Virus record (IMG/VR): IMGVR_UViG_2778261639_000005
Source: a virus
Lineage: Duplodnaviria; Heunggongvirae; Uroviricota; Caudoviricetes
DNA length: 17,896 nucleotides
Reading direction: 5' to 3' (one strand)
The notes under the pieces were generated by a model, which was not told the DNA's origin, did not search any database, and was given only the letters and a program-made list of their open reading frames with translations. Positions 1,969-16,963 of this stretch are shown piece by piece. The position numbers were made by a program, and so were the translations under genes. The stretch's first letter is position 1, and every line of letters begins with the position of its first letter.

Positions 1969-3063
1969 ATGAGCAGACCGGACTGGGGGGCGTTGCAGCA
2001 GGAGTATATTGCTGAATACACCCGCTCCGGTATATCTCCGGTGGCATGGTGTGAAGCAAGGGGACTGAACTACGCAACAGCCCGTCGTTACATCAAAAAA
2101 ACTCCGAAAAATGCGCAGAAAGAAATGCGCAAAACTGCGCAAAAAAGTGCGCGAAAAAAAACTGCGCAGACTGCGCAAAGGCAGAACGGAAAATCTCAGA
2201 AAAAAAAGGCTGTATCCGATGCACTCCTGATTGAGGGGGACACGGAAGAAATTTCGTTCTGCCCCGATGAATTCGGTATTTCTGACCAGCAGGCAAAATT
2301 CGCCATGTTGGTTGCTCAGGGGAAAAAGCCGACAGAGGCATACCGACTGGCTGGTTATGAGGGGCAAGGTGCGACAGCTAACAGCAACGCCAGCCGTATG
2401 CTTAGAAATGCCAGGGTTTATCGTGCTATCAGCTACTTCCGCAATCAGTACCAGAAACGCTATACCGCAGACCTGGATTTACTGGTGAGCCAGTTGATGG
2501 CCATTGTCCAGGCCGACCCCAATCAGTTGGCACAATTTCGCCGTGTTAACTGCCGTTATTGCTGGGGCGAGAATCATCTCTACCAGTGGCGTGATATTGC
2601 AGAATTCGATAAGGCTGCGGCACAGGCCTCCAGAGATGGTAAACCCGAGCCGGAATATGGAGGCCTCGGCTTTGTTGATAACGCCATACCCAATCCTGAT
2701 TGCCCGAAGTGCTGCGGTGAGGGAACAGGACAGCTTTATATGGCTGATACCACACTGCTTGATGGGGATGCGCGGCAATTATATGCAGGGTCAAAGCTCG
2801 GAAAATACGGTGTTGAGATCCTGCTGGAGGATAAGGCTGCCGCCCGGCGTGAATTGTTGCGTTTGCTTTCTGCTGGCGGGGCATTATGTGCAGATAAGCG
2901 GCTACAGGAACTGGAAATTGAACGGCGCAGAATAGAGAACCAGAAGCTGCGCAAAGAGATCGAAACGGTGGAGGATAATGAACATCCCCAGCCTGTGGCG
3001 ATCAATATTAATGTGGTTGATGCCAGATTAAGGAGTGATGAAGATGATCTCTCCGACGCTTAA
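1969..3063 (+). CDS. Terminase small subunit (Terminase_2-like)
   Basis: Segment ISDQQAKFAMLVAQGKKPTEAYRLAGYEGQGATANSNASRMLRNARVYRAI matches the conserved terminase small subunit DNA-binding motif. AGGA SD 8 nt upstream of ATG 1969. Sits immediately upstream of the large subunit. Contains a Lys/Ala/Gln-rich low-complexity linker. Confidence 0.8.
   Translation: MSRPDWGALQQEYIAEYTRSGISPVAWCEARGLNYATARRYIKKTPKNAQKEMRKTAQKSARKKTAQTAQRQNGKSQKKKAVSDALLIEGDTEEISFCPDEFGISDQQAKFAMLVAQGKKPTEAYRLAGYEGQGATANSNASRMLRNARVYRAISYFRNQYQKRYTADLDLLVSQLMAIVQADPNQLAQFRRVNCRYCWGENHLYQWRDIAEFDKAAAQASRDGKPEPEYGGLGFVDNAIPNPDCPKCCGEGTGQLYMADTTLLDGDARQLYAGSKLGKYGVEILLEDKAAARRELLRLLSAGGALCADKRLQELEIERRRIENQKLRKEIETVEDNEHPQPVAININVVDARLRSDEDDLSDA
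2112..2177. repeat. Array of palindromic TGCGCA hexamers (5 perfect copies plus 1 TGCGCG variant) inside the terminase small subunit gene
   Basis: TGCGCA at 2112, 2126, 2136, 2163 and 2172; TGCGCG at 2148; spacing 9-15 bp. Flanked by A-rich tracts. The copies coincide with Ala-Gln codons of the linker. Confidence 0.6.
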
Positions 3064-4345
3064 TGTGCCTCAGGCGCGATTTCTTTCAATGCCCCATAAA
3101 TTTAAAGCCTATATTGCTGGTTTTGGCTCGGGCAAAACATGGGTTGGGTGTGGCGGCATATGCAAGGGGATTTGGGAGCATCCAGGTATAAATCAGGGAT
3201 ATTTTGCGCCAACGTATCCCCAAATTCGCGATATTTTTTACCCTACAGTGGAAGAAGTTGCTGCTGACTGGGGATTGAACGTAAAAATTAATGAGGGAAA
3301 TAAAGAGGTTCACTTTTATTACGGACGCCAGTATCGGGGAACCACTATCTGCAGATCGATGGAGAAGCCACAAACGATCGTCGGTTTCAAAATTGGTAAT
3401 GCGCTGGTGGATGAACTGGACATTTTGCCGAAGGAAAAAGCCAGAACGGCGTGGCGCAAGATAATTGCGCGTATGCGTTATAAGATTGATGGACTTCGCA
3501 ACGGTATTGACGTTACAACCACGCCGGAAGGATTCAAATTTGTCTACGAGCAGTTTGTTAAAGCCGTGCGTGAAAAAACAGAGCTGGCCTCACTGTATGG
3601 TCTGGTGCAGGCATCTACTTTCGATAATGAAAAGAACCTGCCAGCAGATTACATTCCTTCACTTCTTGAATCATACCCTCCAGAGCTGATTAAAGCCTAT
3701 CTTCTAGGACGGTTTACTAACCTGACAAGTGGTACTGTTTACCATCAGTTTGACCGGAAACTGAATAATTGCGAAGAAGTGGAGCAGCCAGGGGAGCCGA
3801 TTTATATTGGGATGGATTTTAACGTTGGAAAGATGGCGGGAATCGTCCATGTGCTGCGTTTGGGGCTTCCATGTGCGGTAACTGAAATCATCAATGCCTA
3901 CGATACGCCGGATATGATCCGCCTCATTAAAGAACGCTTCTGGCTGTATGACGGGCATGATTACCGGAAAGTGAGGGAGATTTATATTTATCCAGATGCT
4001 TCCGGAGATTCCAGAAAATCAAGTAACGCAAGTACGACGGATATAGCCCAGCTTAAGCAGGCAGGTTTTAACGTTGTGGTGAACAGCTCGAACCCGCCAG
4101 TAAAAGATCGCGTTAACTCAATGAATGCAATGTTCTGCAATGCCAATGGTGAGCGTCGCTATAAAGTTAATGTGAAGCGTTGTCCGGTATATGCCGAATC
4201 TCTGGAGCAACAGGTCTGGGATGATAAGGGGGAGCCTGATAAAAAATCTGGCAATGATCACCCGAATGATGCCGGAGGTTATTTCATCGTTAAGCAATTC
4301 CCTATTGTCAAACCGACCGGAAGAGTCACATCACTTCGGATTTAA
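3044..4345 (+). CDS. Terminase large subunit
   Basis: Walker A motif AGFGSGKT near the N-terminus. AAGGAG SD at 3030-3035 lies 8 nt before ATG 3044; the track start 3035 is GTG with ATG 3038 too close to the SD. Follows the small subunit and precedes the portal. Confidence 0.85.
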   Translation: MISPTLNVPQARFLSMPHKFKAYIAGFGSGKTWVGCGGICKGIWEHPGINQGYFAPTYPQIRDIFYPTVEEVAADWGLNVKINEGNKEVHFYYGRQYRGTTICRSMEKPQTIVGFKIGNALVDELDILPKEKARTAWRKIIARMRYKIDGLRNGIDVTTTPEGFKFVYEQFVKAVREKTELASLYGLVQASTFDNEKNLPADYIPSLLESYPPELIKAYLLGRFTNLTSGTVYHQFDRKLNNCEEVEQPGEPIYIGMDFNVGKMAGIVHVLRLGLPCAVTEIINAYDTPDMIRLIKERFWLYDGHDYRKVREIYIYPDASGDSRKSSNASTTDIAQLKQAGFNVVVNSSNPPVKDRVNSMNAMFCNANGERRYKVNVKRCPVYAESLEQQVWDDKGEPDKKSGNDHPNDAGGYFIVKQFPIVKPTGRVTSLRI

Positions 4346-4347
4346 TT

Positions 4348-5754
4348 ATGGCTGATATATCAACACCCAACCTCGACTATAACGATATGCTGGAGGCGTG
4401 GGATATTAACGACGCATTGATGGGCGGTACGCTTGAAATGCGCAGGCAGGGGGAAAATTATCTCCCCAAATGGCCTAATGAAGATGAAGACGCTTATAAA
4501 AAACGCCTGTCTGTGGCTACGTTACTTCCTGTGTATGAAGAAAGCATCAAACAAAATATTGGGCGCATATTTGCAGAGCCGACAGTATTGAGTGAGGAAA
4601 CGCCGGAAAAAATCAGGGAATATGCAGAAAATATCGACATGGAGGGGAGCCGACTGGATGTGTGGGCGCAGCAATTTTTCAGTCTCGCATTTCAGTATGG
4701 TGTGGCACATGCGCTGGTGGACTATCCACGAACGGATATGAACGAGATTCGGACAAAAGCCGATGAAAACGCGGCCGGTGGTCGCCCGTACGTTACGATG
4801 CTGAATCCACGCCAGGTTATTGGATGGAAATCGAAAGTTGAAAAAGGGAAAGTTGTTCTCACTGATTTGCGTATAAAAGAGGTCATCATTATTGATGGTG
4901 ATGATTTCGGGCAGAAGAAGGTGGAGCAGATCCGCCATATTATGCCCCGTCGAGTAGAAATTTATCGACGCAGCGAAGGTACTAATGGCGAATCTGTCTG
5001 GATGCTTCATGAGTCATGGAATACCAGCCGTGATGATATTCCTCTGGTAACACTGTATACGAAGAAAACAGGGTTTATGCGTGGTACACCGCCATTGCTT
5101 AATCTTGGCTTGCTGAATATCAAGCACTGGCAAAGCCAGAGCGAGCAGGACAATATTCTTCATGTTGCCCGCGTTCCATTGCTGGTGGCCTACGGGCTGG
5201 ACAGGAATGAAGAACTGACGGTTGGTGCATCCACGGCTACGATTTTTGAGGACAGAACAAAAAATGGCCTCGAATATGTTGAACATAGTGGCGCAGCGAT
5301 AGAATCTGGCGAAACATCACTTGAGAAGCTGGAAAATCAGATGCGTCATTCCGGCGCTAAACTTCTGCGGGCTGAAAATACATCCACCAAATCTGTTGAT
5401 CAGACTAATGAAGAGCGGATGCAGGAACACTCGCCGCTTTATACAATGGCGAACTCCCTCGAAGATGCCCTCGATAATATTCTCCAGATAATGGCGGAAT
5501 GGAGCGGAGAGAGTTGCGGTGGCAATGTGGATGTGCGCACTGAACTGGATGTATCTGCCCAGGTGTTTGACTCATCCTCCGCGCTGGCTGTTCAGTCATT
5601 GCGTCAGGGCGGTGATATACGTCAGATTGATGCGGTTCGGGTGTTGCAGGCGTTGAAATTTATCGATCAGGATTCCCGTCCAGAGGAAGTGATCGATGAA
5701 TTAAAAAATCAGAGTGTAATGCTGATGGAAATCAATGATGCAAACCGTGAATGA
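4348..5754 (+). CDS. Portal protein (putative)
   Basis: 468-aa ORF immediately after the terminase large subunit (stop TAA 4343-4345, ATG 4348) and overlapping the start of the head morphogenesis gene. Size and position are canonical for a portal; no diagnostic motif was verified by eye. Confidence 0.65.
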   Translation: MADISTPNLDYNDMLEAWDINDALMGGTLEMRRQGENYLPKWPNEDEDAYKKRLSVATLLPVYEESIKQNIGRIFAEPTVLSEETPEKIREYAENIDMEGSRLDVWAQQFFSLAFQYGVAHALVDYPRTDMNEIRTKADENAAGGRPYVTMLNPRQVIGWKSKVEKGKVVLTDLRIKEVIIIDGDDFGQKKVEQIRHIMPRRVEIYRRSEGTNGESVWMLHESWNTSRDDIPLVTLYTKKTGFMRGTPPLLNLGLLNIKHWQSQSEQDNILHVARVPLLVAYGLDRNEELTVGASTATIFEDRTKNGLEYVEHSGAAIESGETSLEKLENQMRHSGAKLLRAENTSTKSVDQTNEERMQEHSPLYTMANSLEDALDNILQIMAEWSGESCGGNVDVRTELDVSAQVFDSSSALAVQSLRQGGDIRQIDAVRVLQALKFIDQDSRPEEVIDELKNQSVMLMEINDANRE

Positions 5755-6850
5755 ACGGCTGCGTGATGAATCAATTGCTCATGCAGTCTGGATATCCCGC
5801 TATAGCACTGGCGTGGCTGCCAGAATGGTGAAAATACTGAATGACAGCGATGCGGAACTTACTGCTCGCCTGCTGATAGCACTGGACAGCCTCGATCCAG
5901 GTAGTTTTACCGTTAAGCGCCTGGAGTCACTTCTGGCGAGCGTCAGAGAGGTTAACCGCACTGCTATTAACAGCATGTTTACCAGTCTCTCCGGAGAGCT
6001 GAACGAGCTGGCAATTTATGAGGCTGGTTATCAGTTAAGTCTGTTTGATTCTATGCTACCTGATTTTGTTGCTGATGTTCACCCTCTGGTTGGTATCTCT
6101 CCTGATGCACTTTATGCCGCTGCAATGGCGCGACCATTCCAGGGACGACTGCTCAGTGAGTGGGCCTCAGATCTTGAGGCGGATCGGCTCAGACGCATAA
6201 CAAATACAGTGCGTCAGGGTTTTTTGCTGGGGGATACCAATGAGCAGATCGCAAGAAAAATTCGGGGACATGTCAGTAAGGGATTTCAGGATGGTGCATT
6301 GCAGATGAGCCGGGCTAATGCGGCCAGCATTGCAAAAACAGCGGTTGGACATCTTGCTGCTACTGCCCGTGAGAGTTTTGCCAGCGCGAATAATGATTTG
6401 ATTAAGGGTAAGCAATGGTTATCAACGCTTGATAATCGTACTACGCCACAATGTCGAATCAGGGATCGCCTCAAATATACGCTGAATAATAAACCTGTAG
6501 GTCACAGCGTGCCTTATTTGCAGGGGCCGGGAAAAATTCATTTCTGCTGCCGCTCAACGGAAACGTTCATTCTGAAATCAGCGAAGGAACTGGGTATTGA
6601 TGTTCGCGATATTTCCCCGGCTGAGCGGGCCAGCATGGATGGCGTGGTGGCCGGAGATACAACCTACAGGGAATGGTTTTTGCGTCAGCCTTACACCAGA
6701 CAAAAACAGATTGTGGGGGAAAGCCGAGCAAAGCTGATTCGGGATGGTGGTATGTCGCCAGATGAATTTTACACCGATAAAGGCGAATGGCTGACGCTGA
6801 AGCAGCTCCGTGAGCGTGATGCACAGGTATTCAGAAAAGCAGGGATTTAA
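5735..6850 (+). CDS. Head morphogenesis protein (Mu gpF / SPP1 gp7 family)
   Basis: C-terminal region DNRTTPQCRIRDRL...HSVPYLQGPGKIHFCCRST fits the Phage_Mu_F signature (D-x-R-T...C-R...P...H-x-x-C-R). Located directly after the portal. Stop TAA 6848-6850. Confidence 0.7.
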   Translation: MMQTVNERLRDESIAHAVWISRYSTGVAARMVKILNDSDAELTARLLIALDSLDPGSFTVKRLESLLASVREVNRTAINSMFTSLSGELNELAIYEAGYQLSLFDSMLPDFVADVHPLVGISPDALYAAAMARPFQGRLLSEWASDLEADRLRRITNTVRQGFLLGDTNEQIARKIRGHVSKGFQDGALQMSRANAASIAKTAVGHLAATARESFASANNDLIKGKQWLSTLDNRTTPQCRIRDRLKYTLNNKPVGHSVPYLQGPGKIHFCCRSTETFILKSAKELGIDVRDISPAERASMDGVVAGDTTYREWFLRQPYTRQKQIVGESRAKLIRDGGMSPDEFYTDKGEWLTLKQLRERDAQVFRKAGI

Positions 6851-6869
6851 ATAAATCATTTATTACAAC

Positions 6870-6895
6870 AGGCTACCTTCGGGTGGCCTTTTTTA
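6870..6895 (+). terminator. Intrinsic terminator-like hairpin with UUCG tetraloop and T-run
   Basis: AGGCTACC(6870-6877)-TTCG-GGTGGCCT(6882-6889) forms an 8-bp stem with one G-U pair, followed by TTTTT. Lies 20 nt after the head morphogenesis stop. Confidence 0.6.
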
Positions 6896-6954
6896 TTGCT
6901 GCGATCCGGATGGTGAGCAGCGTAACTGTCGGAAGACTTAAACCAGGTACTAAT

Positions 6955-7719
6955 ATGAAACTGAAAACGGTCGAGATTAACGGAAAACAATACGCAGAAA
7001 TTGATACTGCTGGCCTGCCAGTTTATGTGCACGACGATGGTAAAGAAATTGGCTTCGATGCACCGCTGGCGACAAAAAAAATTACAGAGCTTAATGGCGA
7101 GGCAAAAAATCATCGCCTGGCTAAAGAAGCTGCAGAGGAAAAACTGGCTAAGTTTGCCGCTATCGAAGACCCGAAGAAGGCGATCGAGGCACTGGAAATG
7201 CTGTCAAAAATCGACCAGAAAAAGCTGCTCGATGCGGGACAGGTTGACCAGGTTAAGGCAGAAATTACGAAAAATTTTCAGCAGCAATTAGATGAAGAAA
7301 AGCAACGCTCTCAGATGCTGGAGAAGCAGCTTTACGATTCTATGATTGGCGGTAGTTTTGCGGGTTCAAAATATATTGCCGATAAAATTGCGATCCCGGC
7401 AGATTTATTACAAGCCCGCTTCGGGCAGGCATTCAAAGTGGAAGAAGGGAGGATCGTTGCTTATGACGCTTCCGGCAACAAAATTTATTCCCGCGCGAAG
7501 CCTGGCGAACTGGCGCAGTTTGATGAGGCGCTGGAGTTCCTTGTCGAAAATTACCCTCAGAAAGACTACATCCTGAAAGCCAGTGGCAACAATGGCGGCG
7601 GCTCCCGTCCGACACAGCATGATATTGGTCAGAAAACGATGAAACGCTCTGCTTTTGATGCACTGGATGTTGCAGGTAAGCAAAACGCATTGAAAGACGG
7701 TATCACAATCGTTGATTAA
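6955..7719 (+). CDS. Putative scaffolding protein
   Basis: Hydrophilic, Lys/Glu/Ala-rich, predicted coiled-coil protein between the head morphogenesis and major capsid genes. Start taken as ATG 6955 because track start 6883 (GTG) lies inside the terminator hairpin; ATG 6910 is an alternative. Confidence 0.45.
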   Translation: MKLKTVEINGKQYAEIDTAGLPVYVHDDGKEIGFDAPLATKKITELNGEAKNHRLAKEAAEEKLAKFAAIEDPKKAIEALEMLSKIDQKKLLDAGQVDQVKAEITKNFQQQLDEEKQRSQMLEKQLYDSMIGGSFAGSKYIADKIAIPADLLQARFGQAFKVEEGRIVAYDASGNKIYSRAKPGELAQFDEALEFLVENYPQKDYILKASGNNGGGSRPTQHDIGQKTMKRSAFDALDVAGKQNALKDGITIVD

Positions 7720-7817
7720 CACATTTGTCAGCTTCCGGATGGGAGCTGGTGTCAGGGCTGGATAGCTCATTACTCCATCTATTCACAATTACGCAAATTT
7801 TTAAGGAATATTTAATT

Positions 7818-8957
7818 ATGGCTGGAAATACCCTGACCGGGTTGATCCCGACTATTTATACCGCCCTGGATGTTGTATCCCGTGAGCAGGTAGGTTTTAT
7901 CCCTGCGGTAGCAAAAAACGCAAAAGCTGACGCCGCAGCAAAAGATCAGACGGTAACCGCGCCAGTTGCGCCTGAGGCGAAAACCGAAGATATCGTACCG
8001 GGGCCGTCAGCTCCGAATACCGGTGATCAGAATATTGGCACTGTTGATGTAAAAATTACTAAATCCAAAATGGCACCGGTTAAATGGAATGGTGAAGAAC
8101 AACTGGCTCTTGGCCCTTCAGGGACTTACAACACCATTCTGGCTGATCAGTTCAAGCAGGCTTTTCGCGCCCTTGCAAACGAGGTTGAGGCTGATCTTGG
8201 TGCGTTGTATTTCGGTGCTTCCCGCGCCGTGGGAACCGCAGGGACAACGCCGTTTGGTGTTAAAGATGATCTTTCTGATGCTGCTCTGGCTCGTCAGGTT
8301 CTGGAGGATAACGGCGCACCGACAACCGATCTGCAGATGGTGCTTGGCTCCACTGCCATTGCTAATTTGCGCGGAAAACAGTCTGTATTGTTTAAAGTGA
8401 ATGAATCCGGCACTGAACAGCTACTGCGTGAGGGCGTGTTGGGGCGTCTGGAGGGATTCAATATTCACAGTTCGGCAGGTGTGAAACGAGCGCCAAAGGT
8501 TGCTGCAACTGGTTATCTCGTGAATGGAGAGAAAAAAGAAGGCGATGTTCTTATTTCCATTGATACTGGTTCGGGGAGTATTTCTGCAGGTCAGATTGTT
8601 ACGTTCGCTGGTGATCCGAATCAGTATGTTGTGGCAGCAGCGACCAGCAATCTGATTACTCTTGCAGCGCCCGGACTGCGTCAGGATCTGGCCGATGATA
8701 CTGCCATCACAGTTGTTGGGGCCTTTACTGCAAATATGGCGTTTGATCGCAACGCGTTTCTGCTGGTATCCCGTACTCCGGCAATGCCGGAAGGTGGCGA
8801 TAATGCTGATGATGTAATGAATGTTACGGACCCGATTTCAGGGATTACGTTCCAGATTGCACTGTATCGTCAGTATCGCCAGGTGCGCTATGAAGTTGGA
8901 CTGGCATGGGGTGTTTCATCAGTGAAGCCGGCACATGGTTGTCTGATTCTTGGTTAA
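7818..8957 (+). CDS. Major capsid (coat) protein
   Basis: 379-aa ORF with AAGGA SD (7803-7807) upstream of ATG 7818, following the scaffold gene and followed by a strong terminator, the typical arrangement for a highly expressed coat gene. The track ORF start 7725 is an upstream in-frame extension without an SD. Confidence 0.65.
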   Translation: MAGNTLTGLIPTIYTALDVVSREQVGFIPAVAKNAKADAAAKDQTVTAPVAPEAKTEDIVPGPSAPNTGDQNIGTVDVKITKSKMAPVKWNGEEQLALGPSGTYNTILADQFKQAFRALANEVEADLGALYFGASRAVGTAGTTPFGVKDDLSDAALARQVLEDNGAPTTDLQMVLGSTAIANLRGKQSVLFKVNESGTEQLLREGVLGRLEGFNIHSSAGVKRAPKVAATGYLVNGEKKEGDVLISIDTGSGSISAGQIVTFAGDPNQYVVAAATSNLITLAAPGLRQDLADDTAITVVGAFTANMAFDRNAFLLVSRTPAMPEGGDNADDVMNVTDPISGITFQIALYRQYRQVRYEVGLAWGVSSVKPAHGCLILG

Positions 8958-8966
8958 ACATTCAAA

Positions 8967-8986
8967 CGGGGCTTCGGCCCCATTTT
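8967..8986 (+). terminator. Intrinsic terminator (GC stem, UUCG loop, T5)
   Basis: GGGGC(8967-8971)-TTCG-GCCCC(8976-8980) followed by ATTTTT, 10 nt after the capsid stop TAA 8955-8957. Confidence 0.65.
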
Positions 8987-9179
8987 TAATGGGGGGCATA
9001 TGGCCGGATTAACTAAAGAGCAAAGAGCACAGCGTGAAGCCGCACAAAAAACGCAAATTGAGTTAGTGGTTATGGTGACCGATTATCAGATGTTTCCCGG
9101 CGCACCAACTATCGCTAATGTTCATCCTGATGAAGTTGACAACTGGAAGGCTATGGGCTGGAAAACTCAGGAGTAACAC

Positions 9180-9575
9180 ATGATCACTTACGTGACCTGT
9201 GATGACGTTGATAATGCGTTTGGGAACGCCTGGACGAGTGAGAACGCTAAAAATAAAGCTGTTTTAATGGCTAATGCCTGGCTTAATGGCTTCAACCTGA
9301 AAATTAACCCATCCCGTATTCCGGAAGAGGTAAAACTTGCGGGAGCATATGCAGCCAGAATTGCCTCATTCGGTAAGTTGTTTCAGCAGAAAAATGATTC
9401 TGGCGTTGTTATCAGTAAAGCCGTGTCGGCTGACGGGGTCAGTGTATCGAAATCATTTTCTGAGTTGCCAGCAAACAGCACTGCATTGCTTGAACCCGAT
9501 TTACAGCTTGCGATAGCACTGCTGAAACCGTACGGACTTAGTCGCTCACAAGTCAGGGTTGTGAGGGGGGGATAA
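9180..9575 (+). CDS. Head-tail connector / head completion protein (putative)
   Basis: 131-aa ORF with CAGGAG SD at 9167-9172 and ATG 9180; first of four tightly coupled small genes between capsid and major tail. N-terminus loosely resembles the gp6-like connector family. Confidence 0.5.
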   Translation: MITYVTCDDVDNAFGNAWTSENAKNKAVLMANAWLNGFNLKINPSRIPEEVKLAGAYAARIASFGKLFQQKNDSGVVISKAVSADGVSVSKSFSELPANSTALLEPDLQLAIALLKPYGLSRSQVRVVRGG

Positions 9576-10728: not shown

Positions 10729-10754
10729 CGCAATTAATGACATAGGAGGCTCCT

Positions 10755-11717: not shown

Positions 11718-11765
11718 TTTTCCGTTATTCCTCCTGTGGTACTGCCCTACAGGGGGACGCATTGA

Positions 11766-12535: not shown

Positions 12536-12655
12536 TTGTTAATTACGTACACTCTGTTACAGAGATGTGATGGTGTCTTTAATTAAATCGATGATGCTCC
12601 TGGAGAAAAGCATTGCGTGGCCTCGTAATCGCTATATCTACTATTATGTCGCCTG

Positions 12656-12680
12656 AAACCCACTTCGCGGTGGGTTTTTT
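12656..12680 (+). terminator. Terminator-like hairpin between the chaperone and tape measure genes
   Basis: AAACCCAC(12656-12663)-TTCGCG-GTGGGTTT(12670-12677) gives a perfect 8-bp stem followed by TTT, 20 nt upstream of the tape measure SD AGGAG (12687-12691). Confidence 0.55.
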
Positions 12681-12700
12681 GTTGTCAGGAGTTTTAATAA

Positions 12701-15934: not shown

Positions 15935-16265
15935 TACGGAAGAATTTCACTGGTTACCAGAGGATGGAATGAAAACAGAAAATAAACCATCGATAAAAAC
16001 TGTAAGATTTGGTGATGGTTATGAGCAACGAAGTCCAAATGGACTTAATCATTCTCTGCGCGTTTTCACCTGTGATTTCAAAGTTGAGGCGAATGAACGT
16101 GATTCATTTGAAAAATTTTTAGCCCGGCATGAAGGCTATAAATCTTTTTTTTGGCGCCCGCCGGGTATTAACAGAAAAATCAGAGTGGTGTGTCGAACGT
16201 GGTCAGCGACAGAACATATCACCTATACCGATTTTTCGTGTCAGTTTGACGAAGTGGTGATCTGA
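15927..16265 (+). CDS. M: Minor tail protein M (lambda gpM-like)
   Basis: Motif [16 protein letters not shown] and ...KSFFWRPP...FDEVV match lambda M as recalled (VRFGDGYSQRAPAGLN ... KSFLWTPP ... FEQVV). GTG start overlaps the tape measure stop by 8 nt. 112 aa. Confidence 0.85.
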
Positions 16266-16963
16266 TGCAGGACATACAACAGGAAACGCTGAATGAATGC
16301 ATTCGTGCGGAGCAGTCGGCCAGCGTGGTGCTCTGGGAAATCGACCTGACCGAGGTAGGCGGGGATCGCTACTTTTTCTGCAATGAGCAGAACGAGAAAG
16401 GAGAGTCTGTCACCTGGCAGAGTCGGCAGTATCAGGCCTATCCCATTCAGGGGCGTGGATTTGAGATGAACGGCAAAGGTGCCAGTGCAAGGCCAACGCT
16501 GAAAGTCTCTAATCTGCACGGCATGGTCACCGGGATGGCGGAAGACCTGCAGAGTCTGGTCGGCGGAACGGTGGTCAGGCGTAAGGTTTACGCCCGTTTT
16601 CTGGATGCGGTGAACTTCGTCAACGGAAACAGTGACGCCGATCCGGAGCAGGAGGTGATCAGCCGCTGGCGTATTGAGCAGTGCAGCGAACTGAGCGCGG
16701 TCAGTGCCTCCTTTGTACTGTCCACGCCGACGGAAACGGACGGCGCTGTTTTTCCGGGGCGCATCATGCTTGCTAATACCTGCACCTGGACCTATCGCGG
16801 TGATGAGTGCGGTTATCACGGTCCGGCGGTCGCGGATGAATATGACCAGCCAACGTCCGATATCACGAAGGATAAATGCAGCAAATGCCTGAGCGGCTGT
16901 AAGTTTCGCAATAACGTCGGCAACTTTGGCGGCTTCCTTTCCATTAACAAACTTTCGCAGTAA
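16265..16963 (+). CDS. L: Minor tail protein L (lambda gpL-like)
   Basis: [33 protein letters not shown]... and the C-terminal Cys cluster CTWTYRGDECGYHGP...CSKCLSGC closely resemble lambda L. ATG overlaps the M stop by 1 nt. Confidence 0.95.
   Translation: MQDIQQETLNECIRAEQSASVVLWEIDLTEVGGDRYFFCNEQNEKGESVTWQSRQYQAYPIQGRGFEMNGKGASARPTLKVSNLHGMVTGMAEDLQSLVGGTVVRRKVYARFLDAVNFVNGNSDADPEQEVISRWRIEQCSELSAVSASFVLSTPTETDGAVFPGRIMLANTCTWTYRGDECGYHGPAVADEYDQPTSDITKDKCSKCLSGCKFRNNVGNFGGFLSINKLSQ

Follow-up and report, generated by a model that had tools for sequence, protein, structure and literature searches.

Two terminator-type RNA hairpins flank the scaffold and major capsid (coat) genes in the 17,896-nucleotide (nt) stretch of tailed-phage DNA analysed here (IMG/VR record IMGVR_UViG_2778261639_000005, referred to as the window), and comparative sequence evidence confirms that they are real and under selection, bracketing exactly these two genes in a wide phage family. 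The first hairpin, T1, lies between a MuF-like head morphogenesis gene and the scaffold gene, and the second, T2, follows the coat gene. An earlier note on the window had placed two UUCG-loop hairpins with GC-rich stems and a T-run around the scaffold and capsid genes; both are found there (T1 at 6870-6889, T2 at 8968-8981), and they enclose the two genes as described, with the MuF stop codon ending at 6850, the scaffold gene at 6955-7719, the coat gene at 7818-8957 and the next gene starting at 9000. We lean, if with reserve, towards an account in which T1 and T2 are selected hairpins of the Rho-independent terminator type that mark both ends of the scaffold-coat segment within a late operon antiterminated by Q. 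The same interval carries a second, more unusual feature, namely pairs of conserved GGAU- or GGAA-loop (GGAW) hairpins in the leaders of the scaffold and coat genes, and these appear better placed than the terminators for control of scaffold and coat output.

The features of the interval are as follows.

6870..6897, + strand: T1, intrinsic-terminator-type hairpin, AGGCUACC-UUCG-GGUGGCCU (6870-6889) followed by the U-tract UUUUUAUU (6890-6897)
6898..6937, + strand: scaffold leader, tandem GGAW-loop hairpins HP1 (6898-6921) and HP2 (6928-6937)
6955..7719, + strand: scaffolding protein gene (DUF6651); Pfam DUF6651, E = 9e-61; PHROG 206 'head scaffolding protein', E = 2e-22
7726..7768, + strand: coat leader, tandem GGAU-loop hairpins HP1c (7726-7751) and HP2c (7755-7768)
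7818..8957, + strand: major capsid (coat) gene, P22-coat-like, 379 amino acids (aa); Pfam P22_CoatProtein; PHROG 283 'major head protein', covering 3-379
8968..8989, + strand: T2, terminator-type hairpin, GGGGC-UUCG-GCCCC (8968-8981) followed by A-UUUUU-AA (8982-8989)

Anatomy, conservation and counterparts of the flanking hairpins

T1 begins 20 nt past the MuF stop codon and consists of a stem of eight pairs, five of them G-C, closed by a four-base loop (stem-loop -13.2 kcal/mol) and followed by a U-tract with seven U in eight positions. T2 begins 11 nt past the coat stop codon and has a shorter stem of five pairs, every one of them G-C, again with a four-base loop (stem-loop -9.6 kcal/mol). 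Structure prediction with free energies, which the earlier note had proposed as a check, bears out both hairpins: the 41-nt fold of T1 reaches -13.8 kcal/mol (z = -3.6, none of 200 shuffles folding equally well) and the 38-nt fold of T2 reaches -12.2 kcal/mol (z = -2.1). The tail of T2, AUUUUUAA, holds five U in eight with an A adjoining the stem and is only weakly a U-tract, while relatives have as many as seven U at this site; T2 is the weaker of the two because this A stands between the U-run and a stem of only five pairs. Each loop is a canonical C(UUCG)G tetraloop, a type of exceptional stability that is frequent in terminators and in hairpins that stabilise mRNA. Hairpins with this tetraloop were reportedly first described in phage intercistronic regions by Tuerk et al. 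in 1988, in T4. T1 and T2 both lie on the coding strand in intergenic gaps, with the stem, U-tract and position of an intrinsic terminator, and in neither case does a T-run follow the reverse complement.

A chance origin of T1 and T2 is unlikely. A strict scan of the window (free energy of -9.5 kcal/mol or lower, at least 5 T in 8, with 100 dinucleotide shuffles as control) gave three matches on the + strand, T1, T2 and a third hairpin upstream of the tape-measure gene (T3), against 0.45 expected per strand in the shuffles, and all three fall inside the intergenic fraction, which amounts to 3.2% of the window. The notion that the hairpins are functionless, being leftovers of module exchange or chance GC-rich palindromes, draws on the fact that weak matches are common, a simple terminator scan of the window returning 23 sites where 17.7 are expected. 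However, the three strongest matches all occupy the coding strand of this small intergenic part, and the positions are conserved with compensatory changes from Enterobacterales to Acinetobacter and Haemophilus, which leaves that notion scarcely credible.

The relatives were gathered through an alignment of six scaffold homologues, which led to 80 viral contigs and 63 genome loci from Enterobacterales, Acinetobacter, Haemophilus, Comamonas, Xanthomonadales and some Alphaproteobacteria. Among 92 non-redundant loci, a strict scan that allows no bulge, and that consequently under-counts both sites, found a T1-equivalent hairpin with T-run no more than 150 nt upstream of the scaffold ATG in 82 (about 86 after inspection of the misses), and a T2-equivalent hairpin no more than 100 nt past the coat stop codon in 70, rising on inspection to nearly all loci with an intact coat gene. 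In most of the misses the hairpin is there but contains a mismatch or has a short U-run, or the coat gene is truncated or broken. When terminator-like hairpins on the + strand are plotted by position over 3 kb to either side in 77 non-redundant loci, 71 lie in the 200 nt that precede the scaffold ATG and 59 fall between +1600 and +2099, just past the coat stop codon, with 0-3 in each of the remaining 100-nt bins and only scattered background on the minus strand. Within these limits, and in relatives ranging from Enterobacterales to Acinetobacter and Haemophilus, the T1 and T2 positions are the only conserved terminator sites.

The sequences of the stems turn over while their pairing is kept. 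T1 takes the forms AGGCUACC/GGUGGCCU, AGGCUGCC/GGCGGCCU, AACCACC/GGUGGUU, GACCGCC/GGCGGUU and AACCCCGC/GCGGGGUU in different clades, and T2 appears as GGGGC-UUCG-GCCCC, GCCCC-GAAA-GGGGC and UGGGCG-UCUU-GCGCCCA, so that compensatory changes are seen in the stems of both. The two-peak position profile and this turnover with retained pairing indicate that the bracketing is a conserved design and no accident of one genome. Since the loop is free to change (UCCG, UACG, UUAG, GAAA and others are found in relatives), the tetraloop is best regarded as a stability device rather than a recognition site. GC-rich relatives keep a strong hairpin 3' of the coat gene and have lost its U-run, which fits a role for the hairpin itself; T1 is absent from these relatives and from Erwinia phage Gungnir39.

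Between the MuF gene and T1 there is also an insertion hot spot for small open reading frames (ORFs) of the moron type, T1 then forming part of a double terminator. Morons with terminators of their own lie there in L003 (1205-1740), L005 (1350-1776), L062, L080, L092 and other loci of the set.

Terminators that flank the scaffold-capsid genes are a known arrangement, already annotated in HK97, HK639, P22 and lambda. The HK97 record (RefSeq NC_002167) places putative terminators immediately before gp4 (protease) and after gp5 (major head protein), as well as on both sides of the major tail gene, and thus shares with the window the bracketing of shell-assembly genes by terminator-type hairpins within the Q-dependent late operon of a lambdoid phage. 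The proteins are nevertheless unrelated (an HK97-type capsid and protease, without a separate scaffold), the hairpin sequences are others, and no GGAW leader was detected by the covariance model R1, described below, in the stretch of HK97 that was fetched. HK639 (NC_016158) is closer: its scaffold protein is 66% identical, a terminator is annotated at 4901-4922, the orthologous T1 site between the head-morphogenesis and DUF6651 genes, and the same type of GGAW leader follows it. The HK639 record contains a Q-like gene and annotates many more late-operon terminators, and it differs in that the scaffold gene has three leader hairpins and the coat gene, which follows after a 17-nt gap, has none, and in a hairpin past the coat gene that has a poor U-run and carries no annotation.

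The closest counterpart of T2 is the stem-loop annotated past coat gene 5 of P22 (NC_002371, 6102-6119). Like T2 it stands immediately 3' of a P22-type coat gene, and it reads AGGGGC-UGCG-GCCCCU UUCUUUAU, compared with GGGGC-UUCG-GCCCC and its tail in T2, so that the stem GGGGC/GCCCC is common to both and the loop is UGCG in place of UUCG; exactly this UGCG loop occurs at T2 in some relatives. T2 closely resembles and is probably homologous to the P22 element, which the P22 record describes as 'similar in location to stem-loops in phage HK97 and phage lambda'. In lambda, AUGGCCC-UUCG-GGGCCAU stands past gene E, with the same UUCG loop as T1 and T2. T2 therefore belongs with the lambdoid post-capsid stem-loops of lambda E, HK97 gp5 and P22 gp5, being a stable hairpin within about 20 nt 3' of the capsid stop codon, and the bracketing of abundant structural genes by terminators, as in HK97, is conserved among the relatives. 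P22 differs in the remainder of the arrangement, as it has no T1 and no leaders, a portal-scaffold gap of 13 nt, and scaffold and coat genes that overlap by one base. With the present terminators there is one more well-conserved case of an arrangement marked by annotators for 25 years, in which hairpins stand on either side of the most abundant virion genes in an antiterminated operon. In the literature that could be searched, no experimental test of this layout was found, and it has apparently never been tested.

Antitermination and the probable roles of T1 and T2

The transcriptional context of the interval was read in L001, a relative phage that is 99.8% identical across window positions 5700-9200. 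The window starts downstream of Q, and the Q gene, the hairpin that follows it and the single direction of the late genes were all read in this relative. In L001, Q lies at 16207-16749, every gene from Q onwards is on the + strand, and the scaffold-coat module is about 10 kb downstream of Q. At least six terminator-like hairpins, three of them strong, are present on the + strand of its late region, at 16830 (after Q), 17764 (before the holin gene) and 20852 (after trkG, a moron upstream of T1), and at T1, T2 and T3. With several terminators after Q that precede them, the head genes should be reached by RNA polymerase only if it has been antiterminated.

Q builds a nozzle at the RNA exit channel, by which terminator hairpins are kept from forming (PMC9388147), and Q-loaded polymerase resists terminators (PMC9388147, PMC6606751). 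Because hairpin formation is blocked at the exit channel, termination at T1 and T2 should be small in lytic growth. This consideration bears directly on the proposal of the earlier note that the relative dosage of head and flanking proteins is set by partial termination or by 3' stabilisation. For T2 the proposal is reasonable and agrees with how the P22, HK97 and lambda records treat the post-capsid stem-loop, but partial termination is unlikely as the setter of dosage, especially at T1. In its pure form, in which a constant share of polymerases is released at T1 and again at T2 and the protein ratios follow from this alone, partial termination can point to the terminator-like character of both sites, to U-tracts conserved in most AT-normal hosts, and to leaky terminators that tune phage operons in LUZ7 and T7 (PMC9163698). 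T1, however, precedes the two most abundant head proteins, and a stop at this site could only reduce their amount compared with portal and MuF, where an increase is required; since T1 lies upstream of scaffold and coat, it cannot raise their dosage. In addition, the operon is preceded by Q and by no fewer than three terminators, and Q-loaded polymerase resists termination; a promoter scan gave only weak, generic sigma-70-like matches (about half of the shuffled count), none of them in the T1-scaffold gap. We consider pure partial termination decidedly unlikely. A promoter between T1 and the scaffold ATG was itself considered and rejected, no promoter-like site being found in that gap. The comparative set shows selection on the layout and excludes simple attenuation as the way in which T1 works.

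In the account that we favour, lytic transcription probably passes through T1 and T2, which would serve as barriers that stabilise 3' ends, as weak terminators or as insulators. Judging from gene order, late transcription would start downstream of Q and pass several terminators before reaching the head genes, and the Q-loaded polymerase would read through T1, T2 and T3 with little loss. Once the RNA has left the polymerase the hairpins could fold, and would then present barriers to 3'-to-5' exonucleases after endonucleolytic cuts or residual termination. T2 would in this way provide a stable 3' end for the scaffold-coat message and slightly lower the downstream head-completion genes relative to coat, while T1 would give the terminase-portal-MuF message a 3' end of its own, separating it from the scaffold-coat segment. 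Polymerase without Q, as in lysogens or on moron transcripts that begin upstream of T1, should stop at T1, and the costly scaffold and coat genes would thereby be insulated. High scaffold and coat output is more likely to be set at the leaders of the two genes than at the terminators; the leader hairpin pairs probably bind a dimeric protein (the phage scaffold, the coat or a CsrA-like protein), with translation control or 5'-end protection as the presumed result.

Insulation might also be the whole function, T1, T2 and T3 stopping unmodified polymerase from moron or cryptic promoters in lysogens and having no lytic role. The MuF-T1 gap as a site of moron insertion in several relatives, where the terminator of each moron is followed by T1, speaks for this, as do the trkG moron upstream in L001 and the precedent of Tn916, in which terminators against premature expression of the mobile element are combined with antitermination (PMC11658703). 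Insulation by itself nevertheless fails to explain why the sites flank exactly scaffold and coat (in HK97 and HK639 also the major tail gene) rather than the entry points of the operon, and the GC-rich relatives retain their post-coat hairpin without a U-run. As the sole function it is unlikely, if worth retaining as a part of the picture given above.

T1 could alternatively belong to the scaffold leader, an RNase E cut in the AU-rich stretch before T1 or in its U-run yielding a scaffold-coat mRNA that is shielded at either end, by stable hairpins (T1, the GGAW hairpins or both) at the 5' end and by T2 at the 3' end. AU-rich single-stranded stretches are present on both sides of T1 (6851-6869 and 6890-6897), the U-run leads straight into the GGAW hairpin HP1, T1 and the leader usually occur together, and CsrA provides a parallel in shielding flhDC mRNA from RNase E through two sites near its 5' end (PMC7652899). 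The GGAW leader is found without T1, however, in Gungnir39 and in GC-rich relatives, hence the two are separable parts, and we regard this possibility as highly doubtful.

Several points weigh against the favoured account of read-through and 3' protection. The role assigned to Q, which lies outside the window, is deduced from near-identical phages. Conservation of the U-tracts speaks for selection of actual termination in addition to hairpin stability, and this is awkward to reconcile with complete read-through. Protection of the 3' end by T1 would stabilise an upstream message that is in low demand, with no obvious benefit. T2 is weak in this lineage, with its five pairs and the A before the U-run, and its effect may be small, and the leader hairpins may act without any protein. 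A literature search for transcript maps of this phage group gave nothing directly relevant.

Tandem GGAW hairpins in the scaffold and coat leaders

The conserved pairs of GGAU- and GGAA-loop hairpins, which did not figure in the earlier note, are the more unusual part of the interval and are worth an experiment, the terminators being of modest interest. In the scaffold leader, HP1 is built of an outer stem GCUGC/GCAGC, an internal loop GAU/UGA, an inner stem CC/GG and the loop GGAU, and HP2 reads GUC-GGAA-GAC; the GGA triplets, at 6908 and 6931, are 23 nt apart. In the coat leader, HP1c has 11 pairs and a GGAU loop with C-G closure, and HP2c reads GGGCU-GGAU-AGCUC; here too the GGA triplets, at 7737 and 7760, are 23 nt apart. 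The spacing is 18-25 nt in relatives. For the coat leader RNAalifold predicts HP1c and HP2c only, leaving the spacer of about 35-45 nt and the Shine-Dalgarno AAGGAA open.

Alignments of the relatives support these structures. For the scaffold leader (alignment A2), 96.2% of cells are paired compared with 25-55% in slid controls, and 7 of the 11 pairs show compensatory changes. For the coat leader (alignment A3), the corresponding values are 92.1% versus 33-50%, with compensatory changes in 14 of 15 pairs, and none of 500 shuffles reaches the observed values. Such covariation of the stems speaks for an RNA structure and not for a DNA site. The loops hardly vary, with 118 occurrences of C-GGAU-G and 36 of C-GGAA-G; GGA is preceded by a paired C in 154 of 182 cases and by a U in 22, and position -2 is a variable stem base. 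At least two GGAW hairpins are present in 70 of 74 non-redundant scaffold leaders, compared with 11 of 516 coding control windows. The tandem pairs are confined to the two leaders, both in the window and in a whole 38.7-kb relative, where shuffles give 0.06, and the idea that GGAW hairpins form a wider regulon was rejected on this ground.

The two leaders are also recognisably alike. The covariance model R1, built from coat leaders alone, scores 66 bits on the coat leader (7716-7779) and matches the scaffold leader of the window at 6887-6950 with 23.7 bits (E = 2e-6). It detects scaffold leaders in HK639, Gungnir39 and others as well, and gave no match in P22, in the lambda and HK97 fragments or elsewhere in HK639. 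Phages with a scaffold-coat gap of 13-17 nt have no coat leader and usually carry three hairpins before the scaffold gene, as would suit an element operating on every cistron with independent initiation. Prophages assigned to Alpha- and Betaproteobacteria carry the motif as well.

Two further arrangements were seen in the leaders of relatives. In two GC-rich loci of Xanthomonadales type (L126 and L132), a long-range helix CCUCGU...ACGAGG encloses the whole GGAW array, about 90 nt before the scaffold ATG (locus position 3001); its 3' strand is the Shine-Dalgarno region, which suggests Shine-Dalgarno sequestration in those lineages. In three Haemophilus relatives (L133, L135 and L136), a terminator-type hairpin, GGUGCAAGAGAUUGCACC then UUUUUUAUU, occupies the scaffold-coat gap, where enteric phages carry the GGAU hairpins.

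Comparison with known RNA families places the element near CsrA-type sites without making it one of them. An Rfam search of the whole window at E <= 1 gave no match, and searches with each leader at E <= 10 gave no match to TwoAYGGAY (RF01731), CsrB or Rsm and no family at its gathering score. The best sub-threshold matches of the leaders, to RF03142 (19 bits, 37.8 needed) and CRISPR-DR12 (21 bits, 37 needed), were judged spurious. The former, an L2-Alphaproteobacteria ribosomal protein leader, aligns with T1 and the scaffold leader (6871-6942) in a similar layout of a UUCG hairpin, a second hairpin and then CGGAAGAC, a likeness that is probably generic. HK639 has annotated putL-like and M3-like RNAs, and an antiterminator RNA of the put type was discarded as an identity for the leaders after comparison by eye showed no resemblance.

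CsrA sites are defined by a GGA in a hairpin loop and by two sites 10-63 nt apart (PMC7652899), and the leaders agree with both, having GGAU or GGAA loops and the same spacing of 23 nt in the window. As in the CsrA/RsmA targets (the glgC leader and CsrB repeats) and TwoAYGGAY, GGA is held in hairpin loops at sites 22-23 nt apart, suited to a dimer; one leader stem has a possible tandem G.A internal loop, and the coat Shine-Dalgarno also contains GGA. The leaders differ from CsrA sites in that the loop is a GGAU or GGAA tetraloop closed by C-G in place of the ANGGAN hexaloop or the RUACARGGAUGU consensus with its short stem, the stems reaching 11 pairs (10-11 in the coat leader), and in lacking a conserved A two bases 5' of GGA.

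As far as the alignments go, the leader element is a candidate translational operator for a dimeric protein, or a 5' stabiliser. We put forward, as a tentative proposal for which the chances fall somewhat short of even, that the tandem C-GGAU/A-G hairpins, placed before scaffold and, where coat has a long leader of its own, before coat, are an undescribed class of cis-regulatory RNA serving as operator for a dimeric RNA-binding protein (the DUF6651 scaffold, the coat or host CsrA). Through this protein, translation of scaffold and coat, or the stability of their mRNA, would be tied to how far capsid assembly has advanced, and T1 and T2 would do no more than delimit the message. The synthesis of P22 scaffolding protein is said to be autoregulated post-transcriptionally, according to work by Casjens and co-workers from 1985, and we know of no operator for this in P22. 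P22 offers a precedent for mRNA-level feedback on scaffold output in a phage with a P22-type coat, although it is itself without GGAW hairpins. A literature search on CsrA control of phage structural genes and on the targets of P22 scaffold autoregulation found nothing directly relevant. If the proposal is true, the present family offers a defined RNA target for the long-known and unexplained autoregulation in P22, and the leader element is in any case a concrete and easily mutated target for work on the scaffold/coat balance in tailed phages.

The surrounding genes, the third hairpin and the host prophage

The remaining features that frame the scaffold-coat segment are the following.

3035-4345: terminase large subunit
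4348-5754: DUF4055 portal
5735..6850, + strand: MuF-like head morphogenesis gene, the last before T1; Pfam Phage_Mu_F; PHROG 241 'head morphogenesis'
9000..9176, + strand: first gene 3' of T2, 58-aa protein; PHROG 1514, unknown function
9180-9575: head-tail adaptor
12655..12684, + strand: T3, third terminator-type hairpin, GAAACCCACU-UCGC-GGUGGGUUUU (12655-12678) followed by UUGUUG; -12.3 kcal/mol

The stop codon of the MuF-like gene is a TAA at 6848-6850. Several GenBank relatives name its product 'NAD+--asparagine ADP-ribosyltransferase', whereas the Pfam and PHROGs matches obtained here are solely to MuF or head morphogenesis. GenBank relatives also name the scaffold and coat genes alike 'coat protein'. 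A search of the scaffold protein against PDB sequences gave a chance-level match only. The 58-aa ORF past T2 is preceded by a GGGGGG Shine-Dalgarno at 8991-8996.

The starts of the scaffold and coat genes are taken as the ATGs at 6955 and 7818, because these are conserved and have Shine-Dalgarno sequences (AGG at 6945-6947 and AAGGAA at 7803-7808, respectively) and because stop codons are present in the leaders of relatives. The MKLK start of the scaffold protein is conserved in 140 of 141 relatives, and the coat proteins of relatives are 378-379 aa long. Three other starts were rejected: a GTG at 6883 (L001 27724), inside the T1 hairpin, from which GenBank relatives begin the scaffold coding sequence; 7749 (L001 28590), inside the leader hairpins, where GenBank relatives begin the coat gene; and a TTG at 7725, also for coat.

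T3 is situated between the tail-chaperone ORFs and the tape-measure gene (12701). In the near-identical L001 it is a clean CCCAC-UUCG-GUGGG, and the copy in the window carries a 2-nt insertion in the loop. HK639 has an analogous annotated terminator directly before its tape-measure-related gene. HK97 and HK639 flank the major tail gene with terminators, in contrast to the window, where none was found at 10729-10754 or 11718-11765. The 165-nt gap before the tape-measure gene also contains an unannotated ORF of 28 codons (MVSLIKSMMLLEKSIAWPRNRYIYYYVA, 12570-12656), whose stop codon runs into the opening bases of T3; a small moron and a chance reading frame are both conceivable.

The window belongs to a Rac-like lambdoid prophage of Escherichia coli. 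Ten deposited phages are 99.8% identical to the region, among them vB_EcoS-666R9, the genome of which runs int, recET, ralR, kil, cI/cro-like, O/DnaC-like, antiterminator Q, lysis genes and trkG, followed by the structural module. The scaffold-coat segment itself is present in 798 of 5,426 complete E. coli genomes (about 15%).

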